32,000 bases of DNA from Candidatus Saccharimonadota bacterium (GCA_004563595.2 CP042461.1:750001-782000), one strand, 5' to 3'; numbered from the stretch's first letter, positions 14,132-31,763 are shown. A program made the numbers and translations. The notes: generated from the sequence alone by a model not told the origin.

Positions 14132-15136
14132 ATGAAAGATTTTTGGGAAAAACAAATCATAAAGCAGTGAAAACTTTGTTTTCTTGCTCCTATGGATGGA
14201 TATGGTGATAGCGCTTACAGGCAAGCAATGAAAAGGATAGCTCCTCATGTAATCTGTATTAGTGAATTTTATAGTGCTGATGGACTTGTCCATTCTAAAT
14301 TTTTAGCTGATTCTGTTCTTCCTCATCAAAAAATGGAGGATCCACTTATTATACAAATATTTTGAAAAGATCCTGAAAATTTTGCAAAAGCTGCAAAAAT
14401 AATTGAACAAAGTAAGTATAATATCGCTTGAATCGATGTCAATATGTGATGTCCAGCTAAAAAAGTAGTTCGTAGCTGACATGGTTCCAGCTTACTTATA
14501 AACCAAGATATAGCATTTGAAATAATAGATAAGCTAAATAAAGCTACTAAACTCCCTATAAGTGTGAAAACAAGACGTAGTTTTGATGGAAATCAAAATT
14601 TAGTACAATTTGTGAAAGGTCTTGAAAATGCCTGAGCAAAGCTTATTACTATACATGGAAGAACAGCTAAACAAGCCTATACAGGAGATGCAGACTTTAC
14701 GGACATATATGAATTAAAAAGAAATGTTAATATTCCTGTGATATGTAACGGGGATATAAAAAATTATGATGATTGAATGAGTAAAATACAAAATTTAGAT
14801 TGATTCATGATTTGAAGAGCGAGCTTCTGAAACCCCTGGTGTTTCCTGCCTGGAGAGTATCACCCTACACTTTGAGAAATGTTAAGTGCAATGGAGTTTC
14901 ATGCTGAAGAGCTTGTAAAAACTAAATGAGAAAGAAAAGGGTCTTTAGAAATAAGAAAACATCTGGTTCAGTATATTAAAAGCTTTCCATGAGTGAAAGT
15001 ATATAGAAAAAGGCTCGTTACTACTGAAAGCTTTGAGAATTCACAACAGGTTATCAATGAAATACGAGAAACTTTCAAAAATGACTTGGATAAAAAACCA
15101 GGATTATGAGAAATAGACAAAAAAGAAGAGAATTAA
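14132..15136 (+). CDS. dus: tRNA-dihydrouridine synthase, 334 aa
   Basis: Checked codon by codon: ATG 14132 to TAA 15134-15136. Motifs LAPMDGYGDSAYR, IDVNMGCPAKKVV (catalytic Cys), SVKTR and ITIHGRTAKQ. By hand count, 14 of 26 Gly codons are TGA. Confidence 0.88.
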
Positions 15137-15170
15137 AAAAGTCTTATGGTTTTATCCATAAGACTTTTTT
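15135..15170. terminator. Bidirectional intrinsic terminator shared by dus (+) and island ORF A (-)
   Basis: A6, then GTCTTATGG-TTTTAT-CCATAAGAC, then T6. Stem 15141-15149 / 15156-15164. Confidence 0.75.
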
Positions 15171-15175
15171 ATACC

Positions 15176-15550
15176 TCATTTTTGACATTCATAATGATCT
15201 ATGTTCTGTAACATAGATCGATCATATTTTTCTAATTCAGATAATACCTCTAATTCATTACCATTAAAATCAGTATAAAATTCTCTTATTAATGCACTTA
15301 TTGCTTCTTTGCTATCGCTAAGTTGCCCATTACCTAATAGATTAGTTAACTCATCCATATCCATCGACAGTATAAGATTACGAGTATATAAGCCTTTGGA
15401 GGCAGGATATCTCAACGTAACATTTTCACAAGATGGGCACCGATGTGTGTATCCGGTGTAAAAAGCAATTTTTTCTAATGTTTCTCTCCTTTTTTCGATT
15501 AGAACAGGTATTTGACATGTGATAAGGTCATCATTGACTTTAGCGTTCAT
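15176..15550 (-). CDS. Hypothetical 124-aa CPxC protein (island ORF A). Under table 25 it would read through TGA 15176-15178 to TAA 15152-15154, giving 132 aa.
   Basis: ATG 15548-15550 is preceded by AGGAG with a 7-nt gap. Cysteines at C12, C38-P-S-C41 and C122. No internal TGA. The standard-code stop TGA lies 11 nt upstream of the terminator stem. Confidence 0.6.
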   Translation of the reverse strand: MNAKVNDDLITCQIPVLIEKRRETLEKIAFYTGYTHRCPSCENVTLRYPASKGLYTRNLILSMDMDELTNLLGNGQLSDSKEAISALIREFYTDFNGNELEVLSELEKYDRSMLQNIDHYECQK

Positions 15551-15600
15551 ATAAAACTCCTAGAATAGAATACTCAATAAAGGGAATAAACTTGCGGAGT

Positions 15601-15628
15601 ACTATAAGTAATTTAAAAGATAATGCAA
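15601..15628 (-). promoter_or_regulatory. Sigma70-type promoter of ORF A
   Basis: On the - strand: TTGCAT (15623-15628), 16-nt spacer, TATAGT (15601-15606). The CTTATAGTACTC block matches CTTATAATACTC upstream of ORF B. Confidence 0.5.
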
Positions 15629-15631
15629 GAA

Positions 15632-15674
15632 GGAATTAAAAAAAGATATCAAAACGATATCTCTTCTTAATTCC
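15632..15674 (-). terminator. Long hairpin downstream of ORF B
   Basis: 19-nt arms (15632-15650 / 15656-15674) with a 5-nt loop. The two arm mismatches become G-U pairs only in the - strand RNA, which fits an RNA element for ORF B. The trailing U-tract is weak. Confidence 0.5.
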
Positions 15675-15691
15675 CTCATTTTTTGATTCAC

Positions 15692-16066
15692 TTAATTACT
15701 TACTTTAAGAGGTTCAACTTTTACTAGTGTTAGAAGTTGATTAAAGATGTCTTCAATCAATTCACTATCTCCTTTATAGGCACTAAGTAAATCGCTTGAT
15801 CTCATAATATCTCTACGTTTTTCTTCATGATTCACACCATTCACAAAGTACAAGTTCTCTGAATGATAACATCTTTTTATATAATGAACCTGAAATGCTG
15901 CACCTATCATCATTTTTAACAATTTTTCATTACATGGAATATCATGTGATAAATGTGTTGTAGAACAATCGGGGCATTCCTCAATATAGATAGAAAAAAA
16001 TGTTTCTCCTGTTATTATTCCCTCCATTTTCCCGCATAAATCTGTTTTATTGCTTGCTTTGATCAT
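15692..16066 (-). CDS. Hypothetical 124-aa CPxC protein (island ORF B), a probable divergent paralogue of ORF A
   Basis: ATG 16064-16066 is preceded by GGAGG with a 5-nt gap; stop TAA 15692-15694. Cysteines at C11, C31-P-D-C34, C45 and C66. Same length as ORF A, with the same DL.C ... CP.C layout and the same promoter architecture. Confidence 0.6.
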   Translation of the reverse strand: MIKASNKTDLCGKMEGIITGETFFSIYIEECPDCSTTHLSHDIPCNEKLLKMMIGAAFQVHYIKRCYHSENLYFVNGVNHEEKRRDIMRSSDLLSAYKGDSELIEDIFNQLLTLVKVEPLKVSN

Positions 16067-16113
16067 AAAGCCTCCAAAAGATATATAACAAAAGGAAAAT
16101 ATCCTTATAGAGT

Positions 16114-16141
16114 ATTATAAGGTTTTTTTAAAACAATACAA
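16114..16141 (-). promoter_or_regulatory. Sigma70-type promoter of ORF B
   Basis: On the - strand: TTGTAT (16136-16141), 16-nt spacer, TATAAT (16114-16119). Confidence 0.5.
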
Positions 16142-16157
16142 TATAAAATATCAAAAG

Positions 16158-16188
16158 AAAACCCTAGCAATATATTGCTAGGGTTTTT
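16158..16188 (-). terminator. Intrinsic terminator of the lipoprotein gene
   Basis: The - strand RNA reads AAAAACCCUAGCAAUAUAUUGCUAGGGUUUUCUUUU. Confidence 0.75.
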
Positions 16189-16195
16189 ATGGTTT

Positions 16196-17443
16196 TTAGT
16201 TAGCTCCACAACCAACTTGAGTCAAACAAGGGTTATCAATGATAGTAACATTGTGTGAAAAACCTTGATGGGGTGAAATCACATAAATCTTATCATTTAG
16301 AGTAAACAATCTCTGAATCTTATCATCAAGGATAATAGAACTAATTAATGTATAATCTAATAGATTATACGTGTTAATAGAATTATCATACCTTCCTACA
16401 TGCATAACATTATTTGTTATATCAAATGTGAGGTCGCTAATTCCTACCTCAGATAATTGAGAAACATGAGTCATGTCAGATGAGAGGAACATATCTCCAC
16501 CTCTAACAATAACATTTTCACCATTTGGAGTTACCCAAACTTTACCATTTATTGGGTATGTGCCATGATAAGGTAGTTTTCCTAAACTTTGAATATCATT
16601 TCCTATAATAGAAAATTTTTCAAAAGCTGATGGCGAAACATCACTATTAGCAGCAAATACAGTATCCTTAAATGGATGTACAGTTAAACGTGATCTCTGA
16701 CGAATAAAACCTTCGCTTAGAAGCCCACCCCACTCTGAATCATACATAGATATTTTTGTCCATTGACCTGAACCCGATGATATTATTAAATTACCATTCC
16801 CGTTCACAACAATATCATATGGGTCAATATCTACATGCAAAGTATCTATAAGCTCTTGAGTATCACGATCAATAACTGCAATAAAGCCTTCCTGTTGAAG
16901 CTCAGACCATTGATTATTATGTTCTTGCGTTAATAAGGAAACATATAACTCATTTCCATCATCTGAAATAGCCATACTTTCTGGCATAAGTGTGTCAAAA
17001 GTTATAGTATTTATTTTTTGACCTGTAAATGCATCCATAAATAATAACTTACTACTCTTCTTATCAGTAGCATATATTATTGAACGTTTTTTATCATAAA
17101 GCATATCTCCAGCAGGATCATCCATAGGAATATGGAATGCTATAATCTCACAACTAATTGTAACATCAGTTACATTAGCAGTTGGAAAGACCCCTGTATT
17201 ATTCTCAATTAAACAACTATAATTTTCTGGAGCTGATTTAATTGAAACCTCATACGGCTTGCCTGGTAGGTAATTCTTGCTGAAAGAAAAATCTGTAGCA
17301 GATGACAATGTTAATGTCTCATTTCCATCTGATATTTCAATATCCCCTTTCAATCCAGTTATTGTACCACTCAGGTTACAACCAGAAAGAATTCCCAACA
17401 AAACAACTAACAAGCTTAATTTGCAAAACTTTAACATGTACAA
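16196..17443 (-). CDS. Lipoprotein, 415 aa: a lipobox, an Ig-like domain, then a YVTN/lactonase-type beta-propeller
   Basis: Intact ORF in the standard code. AAGGAG lies 8 nt before the ATG. Signal plus lipobox MYMLKFCKLSLLVVLLGILSGC. The N-terminal domain GTITGLKGDIEISDGNETLTLSS..FSFSKNYLPGKPYEVSIKSAPENYSCLIENNTG....NVTDVTISC is a pattern I recall from proteobacterial lipoproteins. Propeller-like repeats include DGNELYVSL, NGNGNLIISSG and PNGENVIVRGG. It has 31 Gly codons, none TGA. Confidence 0.75.
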   Translation of the reverse strand: MYMLKFCKLSLLVVLLGILSGCNLSGTITGLKGDIEISDGNETLTLSSATDFSFSKNYLPGKPYEVSIKSAPENYSCLIENNTGVFPTANVTDVTISCEIIAFHIPMDDPAGDMLYDKKRSIIYATDKKSSKLLFMDAFTGQKINTITFDTLMPESMAISDDGNELYVSLLTQEHNNQWSELQQEGFIAVIDRDTQELIDTLHVDIDPYDIVVNGNGNLIISSGSGQWTKISMYDSEWGGLLSEGFIRQRSRLTVHPFKDTVFAANSDVSPSAFEKFSIIGNDIQSLGKLPYHGTYPINGKVWVTPNGENVIVRGGDMFLSSDMTHVSQLSEVGISDLTFDITNNVMHVGRYDNSINTYNLLDYTLISSIILDDKIQRLFTLNDKIYVISPHQGFSHNVTIIDNPCLTQVGCGAN

Positions 17444-17487
17444 ATCTCCTTTTTTTAATTTTTACCTAACCCAAATTATCAGGTTAA

Positions 17488-17530
17488 ATCCATTTTCGTA
17501 AAACATATCTATGATTTACGAAAATGGATT
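17488..17530. promoter_or_regulatory. Perfect 16-bp inverted repeat overlapping the -10/+1 region of the lipoprotein promoter (candidate operator)
   Basis: AATCCATTTTCGTAAA (17488-17503), 11-nt spacer, TTTACGAAAATGGATT (17515-17530). The right arm overlaps the -10 hexamer by 3 nt and there is no trailing U-run. Confidence 0.5.
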
Positions 17531-17555
17531 ATATAAAAACTAAATCATATGTCAA
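17528..17555 (-). promoter_or_regulatory. Consensus sigma70 promoter of the lipoprotein gene
   Basis: On the - strand: TTGACA (17550-17555), 16-nt spacer, TATAAT (17528-17533). The -35 hexamer sits in the loop of the dnaB terminator hairpin. Confidence 0.55.
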
Positions 17556-17570
17556 AATGATTTAGTTTTT
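17535..17570 (-). terminator. Intrinsic terminator of dnaB
   Basis: AAAAACTAAATCAT-N8-ATGATTTAGTTTTT: 14-nt arms flanked by A and T runs. Confidence 0.7.
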
Positions 17571-17596
17571 ATAATATTTCAGGCAAGATTTGTCTC

Positions 17597-18934
17597 TTAA
17601 AAATCAGCAGGTTGATTCATGTTTCTTTCAATTTCAACAAATTTTTGGTTATTCTTGTTAAACATAAGCTCCATATTCCCTATTGGCCCATTTCTATTTT
17701 TTCTCATAAATATATCTGTAACTCATTTTTTATCCGTGAACTCATCATAATACTCTTCTCTATATATCATCATTATGATATCCGCATCTTGTTCGATAGA
17801 TCCTGATTCTCTCAAATCTGACATTATAGGACGTTTATCCGGTCTTTGTTCTACAGCTCTTGATAATTGAGATAAAGCGATAATAGGAACATCTAGTTCT
17901 CTTGCAAGTGATTTAATTCACCTTGATATTTCAGATATTTCTTGAACTCTATTTATAGAATTTCCACTACTCATTAATTGTAAGTAATCAATAATAATCA
18001 TATCTAAACCTGACTCGATTTTAAGTCTTCTACACTTAGACTTTAGATCTGTAAGATTTCAACCAGCTGAGTCATCAATATAGATATTTGCTTCTCAGAG
18101 CTTTTCCATTGCTTCACCAATTTTTGAAAACTCTTCATCTGCTAATTCTCATTTTGCTAGCTTCCAAGCATCAATTTCCATTGCTGATGCTATCATTCTA
18201 TCTGTCATCTGTTCTTTACTCATCTCAAGAGAGAATATAGCTACATTTTTTCATGAAAAACCTACATTTTGTGCTATATTCAAAGCAAAAGCAGTTTTTC
18301 ACATTGAAGGCCTCGCTGCAACAATAACCATATCACCTCATTTTAGACCACCACACTTATTATCAAAATCATTGAATCATATTTGTGTTCTATGTTTTGT
18401 TATAAGATCTGGATTTTCATGGATTTGCGCAAACTCTTCAAATCTTTGACTCAGTATTTCATTTATATGAACAAGCTTTGTTTTGATAAATGTTTGAGTG
18501 ACCTCAAAGAGTGACTTTTCTGCTTTTTCTAGTAATTCATTTATTTGAGCGTCTTCACTATATCAACATGATATAATTTCATTTCAACTTTTTATTAATT
18601 TTCTTAAAACTGACTTATTTTTAACAATTTGGGCATATTCAAAAATATTTGCAGTAGTTGGGACAATTTCAGTTAACTCTGTTAAATATGTGATTCCTCA
18701 GACTTTATCTAATAGCTTTTTATCGTCTAATTTTTCCTTTACCGTTATGAGATCAATCGGTTTGTTATGCTTGTATAAATCAGACATAACCTCAAATACT
18801 TTCGCATTTGATTCATTATAAAAATCCTCTGGAGATAATATATCTCAGATAGTAATAAATCAATCTTTATCAAGCAATAAACTTCATAAAACAGATTGTT
18901 CAGCTTCAATAGTATTTGGTGGGACTTTTAACAT
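17597..18934 (-). CDS. dnaB: Replicative DNA helicase DnaB, 445 aa
   Basis: N-terminus [22 protein letters not shown]. Walker [17 protein letters not shown] (its Gly is TGA at 18299-18301). Also [34 protein letters not shown] and RKNRNGPIG. Ends at TAA 17597-17599. About 15 of 28 Gly codons are TGA. Confidence 0.93.
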
Positions 18935-24596: not shown

Positions 24597-24790
24597 ACTT
24601 TGATTTTAAAAAATAATTTTTCTACAAAAGAAAAACCCCAAAGGCTTACTATTGTATTGCCTTTGGGGTCCTTTGATAAGTATAGGACGGTTCCACCCAA
24701 ATTCTCTTTATTTTCATAAAAAGCACTTTTATAACTTAAATATATCTTATTAGTTTCCAAACTAATGTTAAAACAATATATTTTTATTAA
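24597..24790 (-). promoter_or_regulatory. T-box riboswitch leader of glyQS (transcription attenuation type) with an unusually short Stem I
   Basis: - strand RNA elements: T-box core AAUUUGGGUGGAACCGUCC (24685-24703). Antiterminator pairing UUUGGG/CCCAAA and GUCC/GGAC around a UGGAACC bulge. A competing terminator ACCCCAAAGGC-N13-GCCUUUGGGGU plus U5 (24635-24669). Stem III CUUUUUAU-GAAA-AUAAAGAG (24704-24723). Only about a 46-nt Stem I candidate (24738-24783). Confidence 0.8.
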
Positions 24791-24794
24791 CTAC

Positions 24795-24822
24795 ATTCTA
24801 TAATTTTCAATAATTATGTCAA
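24795..24822 (-). promoter_or_regulatory. Sigma70-type promoter of the glyQS leader
   Basis: On the - strand: TTGACA (24817-24822), 16-nt spacer, TAGAAT (24795-24800). Confidence 0.55.
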
Positions 24823-24836
24823 TACTACTATCAAGA

Positions 24837-25106
24837 TTATTTTTGTATTCTCATACTTTCTTTATGTATCTTTTCCCATAAATCAAGAATGAAGTCTCTT
24901 TCTAATCATCTTTCATCAGCTTCTTCAAATAACATTGTTAGCAGACTATCCCATCTCTCTTCTTGTAAAATAGGCATATCAGTTTCTTTCTTAATCTTTC
25001 AAATTTCTTTTGATATTCAAAATCTTCTTGATAATAAATATACTATTTCTAGGTCGATAGTATCGACTTGATCTCTATAATGCTGTAATAGTTCGTGGTG
25101 TTCCAT
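24837..25106 (-). CDS. Chorismate mutase, AroQ class, 89 aa
   Basis: MEHHELLQHYRDQVDTIDLEIVYLLSRRFGISKEIGKIKK....ILQEERWDSLL fits the AroQ pattern (R..ID.ID..I..LL..R......IG..K). Open under table 25, ending at TAA 24837-24839. Confidence 0.6.
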
Positions 25107-25115
25107 GATATTTTA

Positions 25116-27567: not shown

Positions 27568-28557
27568 ATGACACTAAAAGCTCCTAATAAGTCTAGAACT
27601 GCAAGTAATAAAGTAAAGTCAGATTTAAAAACAACTGTTAACAAATCATACATAAAAAACCATGTTTCATATGATAGTAAAATTGATGATTTATTTTTGA
27701 ACTATGGAGTGTATAAAAATGATGATTTTGATAATCATATGCTTACTCTCTCTTCTACAATGTTTCAAAAAATGTCAGAAGCCAAACATAAATCTCAGTA
27801 TAGACAGTATAAAAAATTCGAGACTGAACCTGATCAAAAACTTTTAAATGATGTAAAAAACTGTAATTTTGATGAAAATACTACTCAATTTATTATTTCA
27901 TATATAATAACAGAAAAAGAAAAGCAAAAAAAAGAAGCTATTATTTTATCACAGCAAAAAGCTACAAAATCAAGAATTTCACAGTTACTAAAATTCAAAA
28001 GTCCTCTCAAAAACATAGCAAGCAAAGCAAAAAAAATTATTTCAAATACGAAGACAGCTCTCAGTTCTATTCTTTGATGAGCTCTCCTTCTAACGACTGT
28101 TGCAGCGACTTCGGGAGATCAAAGTAATCAATCTGTATTACAAGAAGATACTTCTCATAGTACAGTGAAAACAACTCTTAATTTACAAGAACAACCAGCA
28201 GATTATACTGCTCTTCCTGAAATACAGACTCCAGTTAAAACTCTTAATAGGGAACCTGTCCCAGTTCTCAAAAGCCTTATAGAAGTATCAGAAAATGTGG
28301 GTGAAGTACCAGAAATTACTCCAAAAAATAAATATCAAATGCTTTTAGATGATATCCAACCATCAGAAGGGTTATGGAAATCTGCAGAACGTGCAAAGAA
28401 ATTATTTTGAATGGAAAAAAGTAATAGAATAGATTTACAAAAATTATTAAAGTTTGCATTATCAGAAGGTGCTGAAACTGAAAGAACTATGACAAAAGAA
28501 TTTCAAGCAAAAACTCTCATAAAATATTTAATCATAAATAAACAGATCAAATACTAA
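27568..28557 (+). CDS. Hypothetical Lys-rich protein with a central TM helix, 329 aa
   Basis: The supplied ORFs 27568-28077 and 28165-28410 are in one frame, joined through TGA codons. It ends at TAA 28555-28557. Central hydrophobic segment ILGGALLLTTVAATSG. Confidence 0.5.
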
Positions 28558-29872: not shown

Positions 29873-30019
29873 ATATTCTGATTAAATTAAGTATTTCTCT
29901 TATCTTAATGTTTTAAAATAAAACGCAAGAAAATAAAAACTTGACTTTTTATTTTTTTAGTTAGAATACAGTTACGTTTTACAAAACAACATGCAAAATC
30001 AAAAAGGAGTTTATGGATA

Positions 30020-30283
30020 ATGATTGATAAAACGATAAAAAAAATTCAAGAAAAAACACCAGAATTGATAGAATTAGAAGAAGTAAAAGACAGAATTACT
30101 GGAATCTTATTCTGGAAAAATGCACGTTTTAAATATCTAAAAGCTAATGTGCAAGAAAAATTTTATAAAGAATGGGTAATATTAGCAGAAAAAAGTGTTA
30201 AAATTGGAAATAGAAGACTAGAAATGATTGAAGCATCTCGAAAACTAACTCGAGATGAAGCTAACTATGAAGAAATAGAATAA
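30020..30283 (+). CDS. Hypothetical protein, 87 aa, predicted helical and charged
   Basis: ATG 30020 is preceded by AAGGAG (30004-30009). Possible promoter TTGACT 29941-29946 / TAGAAT 29962-29967. Ends at TAA and is followed by a hairpin. No TGA, though it has only 2 Gly codons. Confidence 0.5.
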   Translation: MIDKTIKKIQEKTPELIELEEVKDRITGILFWKNARFKYLKANVQEKFYKEWVILAEKSVKIGNRRLEMIEASRKLTRDEANYEEIE

Positions 30284-30310
30284 ATCATCTCAGTAGTAAG
30301 TTATTTATAC

Positions 30311-30342
30311 AAAAAAAGCCGGAAAGTAATTTTCGGCTTTTT
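30311..30342. terminator. Bidirectional terminator between the 87-aa ORF and ahcY
   Basis: A7, then GCCGGAAA-GTAAT-TTTCGGC, then T5. Confidence 0.65.
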
Positions 30343-30359
30343 GCTATTTTGAGTTCTTT

Positions 30360-31763
<1,404 letters not shown>

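Follow-up and report, generated by a model that had tools for sequence, protein, structure and literature searches.

How can a genome in which TGA encodes glycine carry, between two ordinary native genes, three consecutive genes that never use TGA for glycine? This question is raised by a stretch of 32,000 nucleotides (nt) from CP042461.1 (positions 750001-782000, assembly GCA_004563595.2; "the window" below), in which three minus-strand genes encoding proteins of 413, 124 and 124 amino acids (aa) lie between dus and dnaB, here called genes 1, 2 and 3 of the island (Table 1). A first reading of the sequence alone, the original prediction, had pointed to these three genes and proposed their recent acquisition from a standard-code donor. 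Our analysis indicates that the island is very probably foreign DNA from a source in which TGA is a stop codon, inserted between dnaB and dus, and an acquisition from such a source agrees with an empty site in relatives, lipoprotein homologues outside the candidate phyla radiation (CPR), the complete lack of TGA glycine codons, an apparent fossil stop codon and tryptophan codons that are exclusively TGG.

The 413-aa protein encoded at 16196-17437 is a 100% match to A9Q91_03590 of Candidatus Gracilibacteria bacterium 28_42_T64, the closed and read-curated 1.34-Mb genome of which uses code 25 (TGA = Gly) and lacks prfB (Sieber et al. 2019, PMC6851277). Within the window the reading of TGA was checked on dnaB by five pairwise alignments with standard-code DnaB homologues, giving 75 comparisons opposite 15 dnaB TGA codons, in which 37 residues were glycine and none was tryptophan. 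About 26 genes were resolved in the window with TAA and TAG as sole stops. Among 23 native genes TGA accounts for 24-100% of the glycine codons per gene and for 59% of the pooled 581, with 14/26 in dus, 15/27 in dnaB and 9/38 in ahcY, the most TGA-poor native gene, in line with what had been counted before. The island genes, set against this background, contain 42 glycine codons (31 + 6 + 5), a number that had been obtained by hand and was reproduced here, and TGA is used for 0 of them. At the native rate of the window, against which the proposed test was made, the chance of such an outcome is 0.41^42, or ~5e-17, and even at the ahcY rate it is 0.76^42, or ~1e-5. Reading the window in the standard code gives nine open reading frames (ORFs) of at least 110 aa, by far the longest being the 415-aa island ORF, and the six outside the island are, judged by their overlap with code-25 calls, antisense or fragments of native genes, in agreement with the earlier claim that the island holds the only substantial standard-code ORFs.

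The second coding anomaly concerns translation initiation. Shine-Dalgarno (SD) strength was calculated as duplex energy with the canonical anti-SD sequence, and the three strongest sites among 26 window genes are those of the island (-8.7, -9.3 and -6.8 kcal/mol), an arrangement with a probability of 1/2600; the sites AAGGAG, GGAGG and AGGAG noted earlier are thus the three best of the window. Among native genes a single one (g15_TPR) reaches -6.5 kcal/mol and every other is no lower than -3.1 kcal/mol. More generally, SD sites are essentially lacking from the native genes of this clade (window, L065-L092 and L095; the labels denote loci described below). Among 331 ORFs surveyed in the window and in loci related to it, there are 316 genes from code-25 loci of which 228 have at least 10 glycine codons, and only two kinds of zero-TGA gene occur among these 228, namely the island lipoprotein gene and a foreign-looking MlaA gene found in two genomes. 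Sites of -6 kcal/mol or stronger precede 8 of the 331 ORFs, and five of these eight are the foreign, TGA-free genes.

Furthermore, the oligonucleotide composition of the island departs from that of its surroundings, and the windowed composition and codon checks proposed earlier place extremes of the window exactly here. Its dinucleotide signature delta* (0.115 vs 0.055 +/- 0.016) and its tetranucleotide distance (0.268 vs 0.185 +/- 0.029) are both window maxima, and the likelihood of the non-glycine codons under the native model is lowest, second-lowest and fourth-lowest for the three island genes. CGT makes up 32% of the arginine codons, compared with 6% in native genes; codon usage is further characterized by a GC content at third codon positions (GC3) of 0.21, with ATA for 39% of isoleucine and AGA for 47% of arginine, and tryptophan is encoded by TGG four times and by TGA 0 times. 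The GC contrast, however, was overestimated in the original prediction (32-37% inside vs 23-28% outside): the island has 31.0%, the remaining window 28.3%, dus 32.3% and dnaB 30.3%, and ~11% of equal-sized windows match or exceed the island. Overall, the coding signals and the oligonucleotide composition of the island are atypical for its host, and GC content by itself is not.

Each island gene also has its own promoter and terminator, as had been described. The pattern TTGNNN-N16-TATANT occurs 11 times in the whole window (5.3 expected) with one properly placed match per island gene, and a strong hairpin follows each gene on its 3' side (z = -5.7 to -7.5). The same promoter pattern is in use by native genes of the window, so the promoters cannot be taken as a foreign mark.

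Whether the island was inserted can be read from its relatives. A DnaB-based scan of public metagenomes recovered about 30 related Gracilibacteria loci (numbered with the prefix L), which were compared with the window by tblastn under code 25. The closest relative, L065, shares 94% (DnaB), 89% (Dus) and 92% (TopA) aa identity and has kept the gene order; 46 bp, with one common hairpin terminator, lie between its convergent dnaB and dus stops. Empty gaps between the two genes were likewise found in L078 (20 bp) and in L081, L085 and L091 (42 bp each), compared with 2,460 bp in the window, and the gap of L066 and L067 (~240 bp) is free of ORFs; the syntenic comparison called for earlier hence finds the island absent from L065, L078, L081, L085 and L091. 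Homology to L065 stops at the dnaB stop and restarts at ATTCTCTTCTTTTTTG, located at the dus stop and forming the dus-side arm of the native hairpin. A terminator belonging to the island has taken the place of the second arm of this native dnaB/dus hairpin, and the hairpin behind gene 3 now also serves the convergent dus. Other DNA has entered the same place, since L071-73 carry a different insert of 1.75 kb in the dnaB/dus gap and L069 carries a gene for a TGA-rich membrane protein there, and the gap is a recurrent insertion hotspot.

In L071 (3152-3712), L072 (11380-11940) and L073 (3988-4548) the DNA in this gap includes a 186-aa ankyrin-repeat gene with TGA at 0 of 5 glycine codons, where it adjoins the gene of an Mrr-type endonuclease with 18 TGA codons.

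The end of gene 3 gives an independent hint to the code of the source. All three genes had been said to read the same in the standard code, which holds for genes 1 and 2; gene 3 ends in TGA (15178-15176) and gains eight more residues under code 25, a tail of which this TGA encodes the first glycine and which is included in both the NCBI and the JGI gene calls. The TGA stands directly before the terminator stem, and owing to this placement it is evidence for a source in which TGA meant stop; it looks like a fossil stop codon.

Gene 1 is the only island gene for which a family could be traced. Its product starts with a signal peptide, MLKFCKLSLLVVLLGILSGC, carrying the lipobox LSGC (pattern [LVI][ASTVI][GAS]C), followed by an N-terminal domain of ~75 aa and a predicted 7-bladed beta-propeller (residues ~98-404). 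In the AlphaFold2 (AF2) model, built from a shallow alignment, the block-mean predicted local distance difference test (pLDDT) score of residues 110-400 is mostly 75-94 (mean ~85), and a Foldseek search of the PDB matched 7-bladed WD40 propellers with probability 1.0 and a target-normalised template modelling (TM) score of at most 0.75, these being generic fold matches. Modelling thus showed residues 98-404 as a 7-bladed propeller. The N-terminal domain gave the sole PHROGs match (phrog_24736, E = 1.4e-5, unknown function). Resemblance to the YncE/YVTN 7-bladed surface proteins lies in the predicted propeller behind a secretion or anchor signal and in a local match to NF052280 (YncE-type); the match reaches 36.8 bits against a cut-off of 400 and covers residues 112-176 only, so that gene 1 is not a member of that family. 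Judged by sequence, the motifs DPYD, SSGSGQW, SP and PYHG define a separate, uncharacterised family. The domain fusions of this propeller family, lipoboxes in Proteobacteria and SLH, copper-amine-oxidase-N or cell-wall-binding modules in Bacillota, point to an extracellular role.

None of the relatives of the lipoprotein belongs to the CPR. Eight significant relatives were found among 5.8 billion protein clusters (best identity 43%, none CPR), and a scan of 185,579 species genomes returned 62 loci of the family without a single CPR genome. The best relatives, at 37-45% identity, come from marine Gammaproteobacteria (Alteromonadales, Vibrionales), with carriers in Enterovibrio, Psychromonas, Alteromonadaceae, Catenovulum, Pseudobowmanella, Microbulbifer, Colwellia and Pseudoalteromonas, and those from Bacillota come next (~30%). 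In a neighbour-joining tree the Gracilibacterium protein forms a long branch basal to the proteobacterial clade and apart from the Bacillota clade. The homology search and phylogeny proposed earlier therefore gave the lipoprotein a non-CPR affinity. In several Gammaproteobacteria (L005, L007, L012, L015) the DPYD/SSGSGQW propeller domain occurs two to three times in tandem, as adjacent paralogues or in multi-domain proteins.

The two small Cys-containing proteins are ORFans with predicted cytoplasmic location. Gene 2 found only itself among 5.8 billion clusters, and its single-sequence AF2 model (pLDDT 33) is unusable. When gene 3 was run by phmmer against the full set of 1.84 billion representatives, the only matches were gene 3 itself and a eukaryotic PHD-like one, which we judged likely spurious given its marginal E = 5e-4. 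Paralogy of genes 2 and 3 was left unproven (BLASTP E = 0.024, alignment out of register), no homologue of either protein stands beside the lipoprotein homologues in 64 loci, and a credible homologue of the two 124-aa proteins was found in none of the resources searched. Moreover, scans of the three island proteins against Pfam, NCBIfam, PHROGs and PADLOC gave nothing that exceeds a curated cut-off, and no defence-system, transposase or integrase domain was among the results. That the closest homologues appear to lie outside the recipient clade is accordingly a statement on the lipoprotein alone; the small ORFans are uninformative.

From which donor could the island originate? The GC3 of the lipoprotein homologues ranges from 0.27 to 0.82 (0.30-0.33 in Colwellia), compared with 0.21 in the island. 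The composition and codon usage suggest that the donor was probably a standard-code, SD-using, low-GC lineage or vector which has so far not been sampled. A bacterial host or prey had been offered as a possible donor, and the Colwellia relatives do fit the host candidate of the genome paper (PMC6851277), but identities of 37-45%, the long branch and the GC3 mismatch speak against it. Colwellia itself was ruled out as direct donor by 39% identity and the GC3 of 0.30-0.33 vs 0.21, and a code-4 donor by the tryptophan codons.

The age of the insertion is constrained by L065. The event post-dates the split from this relative; the split itself is old, with 83% nucleotide identity and 53% of four-fold sites different. 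GGN and TGA have switched at 18 of 69 conserved glycine sites, and a two-state TGA clock (equilibrium 0.6) would imply, for an insert with 0/42 TGA, a residence of less than ~0.3 of the time since the split. Such a clock is put in doubt by the MlaA/VacJ lipoprotein gene (PF04333, 244 aa) that is present in two code-25 genomes (L089, 12926-13660; L090, 13703-14437; minus strand in locus coordinates). This gene has 0/20 TGA, the SD site AAGGGAGGAA (-11.3 kcal/mol), a GC3 of 0.43 and a GC-rich terminator of its own. Its two copies differ at 28% of four-fold sites and neither has gained TGA, although native orthologues of L089 and L090 show 19 GGN/TGA-discordant vs 35 GGN-concordant glycine sites, from which we estimate P ~0.01 for MlaA staying TGA-free. 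Because MlaA remained TGA-free through this divergence, the TGA-gain clock is unreliable, and foreign genes may resist the acquisition of TGA; a recent insertion of the island is likely but not established. The MlaA gene resembles the island in being TGA-free, in its strong SD and own terminator, in its code-25 genome and in belonging to a family typical of diderm Proteobacteria, and it differs as a single gene with raised GC3 at another locus, common to two diverged genomes and not very recent. A member of MlaA, a family of outer-membrane proteins, is unexpected in a lineage reported to have no outer membrane.

Taken as foreign DNA, the island would have arisen as follows. About 2.46 kb from an organism or mobile element with TGA as stop and SD-led translation would have landed, in a single transfer event, in the short convergent dnaB/dus intergenic terminator of a code-25 Gracilibacterium. 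The cargo would be three self-contained units, in each of which a sigma-70-type promoter and an SD site precede the ORF and a hairpin terminator follows it; the predicted products are a beta-propeller lipoprotein anchored at the surface and two small, Cys-containing proteins of the cytoplasm. Standard-code genes by definition hold no in-frame TGA, so the recipient could translate the genes unchanged, provided that they are expressed; the code difference would affect gene 3 alone, where glycine instead of a stop at its TGA adds eight residues up to the back-up TAA. The lipoprotein would reach the cell surface and plausibly serve attachment or binding in an epibiotic lifestyle. A gene four genes away from the island is a putative dprA, judged by eye from its ORF. 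The DNA may have entered by uptake, followed by illegitimate recombination within the terminator, given that recombinase and repeats are absent and that pili and competence genes are reported in the 28_42_T64 genome (PMC6851277).

Several results weigh against a foreign origin or leave it incomplete. No integrase or transposase domain and no tRNA was found in the window, and its direct repeats are only 12-nt matches at chance level; the absence of meaningful mobility signatures, which would have documented a mechanism of insertion, had been noted from the start. Among ~15 billion proteins there is no lipoprotein homologue above 45% identity and none for the small proteins that would point to a donor. 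In addition, GC and GC3 of the island are close to native values, as would be expected from a low-GC donor but equally after a long residence.

Three other origins were weighed. The island might be the cargo of a code-11-compatible mobile element, e.g., a Gracilibacteria phage, delivered as moron-like units and not as direct cellular DNA, which we regard as unlikely. In-frame TGA is reported to be missing from 34 of 38 predicted Gracilibacteria phages, with nearby stops backing their TGA stops (Liu et al. 2023, mBio, PMC10746230), the same arrangement as the TGA...TAA of gene 3; the promoter and terminator of each gene, the two ORFans among three genes, the AT-rich, recipient-like codon usage that adaptation of an element to low-GC hosts would produce and the phrog_24736 match of the lipoprotein would all agree with a phage source. 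However, the island has no phage hallmark gene, integrase or att repeat, searches with its DNA and proteins against 50,697 phage records, 72,556 plasmids and IMG/VR contigs found nothing similar, and the integrated Gracilibacteria prophages of that study are all TGA-rich.

A distinct proposition, which does not deny a foreign origin, is that code-25 Gracilibacteria actively keep their foreign genes TGA-free and SD-led instead of letting them drift; to this we give rather little credence. The reason could lie in a code-neutral gene pool that standard-code hosts share by way of DNA uptake or of code-11-compatible phages, or else in an SD-driven high expression that disfavours the recoded codon; the dnaB/dus gap would then serve as a landing site for shared genes.

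It is also quite improbable that the genes are native or long-resident and that very high expression or readability in a standard-code partner selects for their TGA-free, SD-led state. The foreign MlaA gene did keep both 0/20 TGA and its SD through 28% four-fold divergence (P ~0.01), the TGA-poor ahcY (9/38) shows that TGA use varies among genes, and the island GC3 is near native; yet every close relative has an empty dnaB/dus site, no CPR genome among those scanned carries the lipoprotein family, TGA-poor native genes retain several TGA codons and lack SD sites, and TGA fraction and SD strength correlate only weakly across genes (rho 0.14). An assembly artefact, i.e., a contaminating standard-code fragment in a Gracilibacterium scaffold, is hardly credible, for although the coding signals change abruptly and exactly at the gene boundaries, it would need two chimeric joins precisely inside the 46-bp spacer with retention of the dus-side half of the native terminator, the published genome is closed with paired-read support checked for every region (PMC6851277), the AT-rich island (GC3 0.21) is unlike every sampled homologue, and a separate 418-kb contig (JGI, ENA, Logan) likewise has gene 3 in the form with the code-25 tail.

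Table 1. Positions of the island, its signals and its flanking genes, counted from the first nucleotide of the window (energies in kcal/mol)
Feature	Position	Strand	Description
dus	14132-15136	+	stop 15134-15136; flanks island
Whole island	15137-17596		~2,460 bp between dnaB stop and dus stop
Terminator hairpin, gene 3	15134-15171	-	16-bp stem; -22.5, z = -7.5
Gene 3 read-through tail	15152-15175	-	eight codons, GGIKKSYG, to TAA 15154-15152; code 25 only; inside terminator stem
Gene 3 (A9Q91_03580 region)	15176-15550	-	124 aa, Cys-containing ORFan, CPSC motif; 0/5 Gly TGA; TGA stop
SD AGGAG, gene 3	15557-15561	-	6 nt 5' of ATG; -6.8
Predicted promoter, gene 3	15601-15628	-	TTGCAT-16-TATAGT; pattern match
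Terminator-like hairpin, gene 2	15629-15677	-	22-bp stem; -28, z = -6.5
Gene 2 (A9Q91_03585)	15692-16066	-	124 aa, Cys-containing ORFan, CPDC motif; 0/6 Gly TGA; TAA stop
SD GGAGG, gene 2	16071-16075	-	4 nt 5' of ATG; -9.3, best of window
Predicted promoter, gene 2	16114-16141	-	TTGTAT-16-TATAAT; pattern match
Terminator-like hairpin, gene 1	16158-16187	-	intrinsic type; -18.1, z = -5.7
Gene 1 (A9Q91_03590)	16196-17437	-	predicted lipoprotein, 413 aa from ATG; 0/31 Gly TGA; TAA stop
SD AAGGAG, gene 1	17446-17451	-	8 nt 5' of ATG; -8.7
Two adjacent stem-loops, gene 1 5' leader	17464-17527	-	-27, z = -6.6
Predicted promoter, gene 1	17528-17555	-	TTGACA-16-TATAAT; 12/12 consensus; pattern match only
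Hairpin 3' of dnaB	17532-17573	-	perfect 17-bp stem, 100% complementary; -17.6, z = -5.4
dnaB	17597-18934	-	stop 17599-17597; flanks island

At the dnaB side of the island, the hairpin at 17532-17573 is probably the present dnaB terminator, and its loop contains the -35 hexamer of the lipoprotein promoter. The first of the two leader stem-loops (~17490-17527) is a near-perfect 21-nt palindrome that starts directly after the -10 box; the pair had no Rfam family match and could possibly be an operator or an mRNA-stabilising element.

Across the whole window, tRNA and Rfam scans gave no match, and two stretches of ~0.5 kb each (24597-25115 and 29873-30359) contain neither a code-25 ORF nor a tRNA or Rfam match. 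The TGA content of ahcY (30360-31763, minus strand; 9/38) lies below the clade mean with a binomial P of ~1e-7, and the gene has no SD site; either an acquisition of older date or high expression may lie behind this. A 329-aa gene (27568-28557, plus strand) uses TGA for 3 of its 8 glycine codons. Beyond the window, two short loci (L093, 4.2 kb, and L094, 10.6 kb) encode a DnaB 53% identical to that of the window and lack in-frame TGA in every gene. Their GC is 28-34% and SD sites are missing, so that both look like relatives with the standard code and a low GC.

The island can be compared with three known kinds of system. The code-11-compatible phages of Gracilibacteria and Absconditabacteria likewise lack in-frame TGA, place a further stop shortly after a TGA stop and have code-25 hosts, but these are whole genomes linked to their hosts by CRISPR spacers, whereas the island is a 2.4-kb chromosomal insert without phage genes. 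In the same organism, a putative lateral region beside a PTD-repeat gene was described with "the expected alternative coding throughout" (Sieber et al. 2019, mBio, PMC6851277). That region shares with the island genes that most resemble those of non-CPR bacteria, Colwellia included, and an interpretation as acquired from a possible host lineage; it differs in that TGA is already in use for glycine, while the island is TGA-free with donor-type SD sites. Text searches of that paper found no mention of the island. Finally, genomic islands and phage morons resemble it as strain-specific insertions at hotspots with an atypical signature and autonomous promoter-ORF-terminator units, and the present island stands apart with only three genes and without tRNA target, integrase, direct repeats or prophage context.

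That standard-code DNA is readable in Gracilibacteria is already known, as it was published for phages in 2023 with the argument that no translational barrier to such DNA exists there (PMC10746230). The island is therefore a clean but not unprecedented case of gene transfer across a code boundary, and new here are the empty-site evidence and a chromosomal, non-phage example with all donor-type signals. The further suggestion that TGA-free cassettes would cross such a barrier most easily contains a logical slip, since every standard-code donor gene lacks in-frame TGA and no filter on cassettes is implied. The barrier itself is asymmetric, import into code 25 being nearly free and export blocked.

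In conclusion, genes in the ordinary code can enter a recoded genome and presumably be used there unchanged. The absent recoded codon together with donor-type ribosome-binding sites forms a sharp, annotation-free marker of foreign DNA, applicable genome-wide to code-25 and code-4 bacteria for tracing what epibionts gain from their hosts, for dating transfers and for testing how far a code change isolates a genome. Of secondary value is the hint that foreign genes may stay TGA-free longer than drift predicts. For this Gracilibacterium, a candidate factor in the interaction with the host is the lipoprotein, which is predicted to be a surface beta-propeller and has its nearest relatives among the marine Gammaproteobacteria proposed as hosts.

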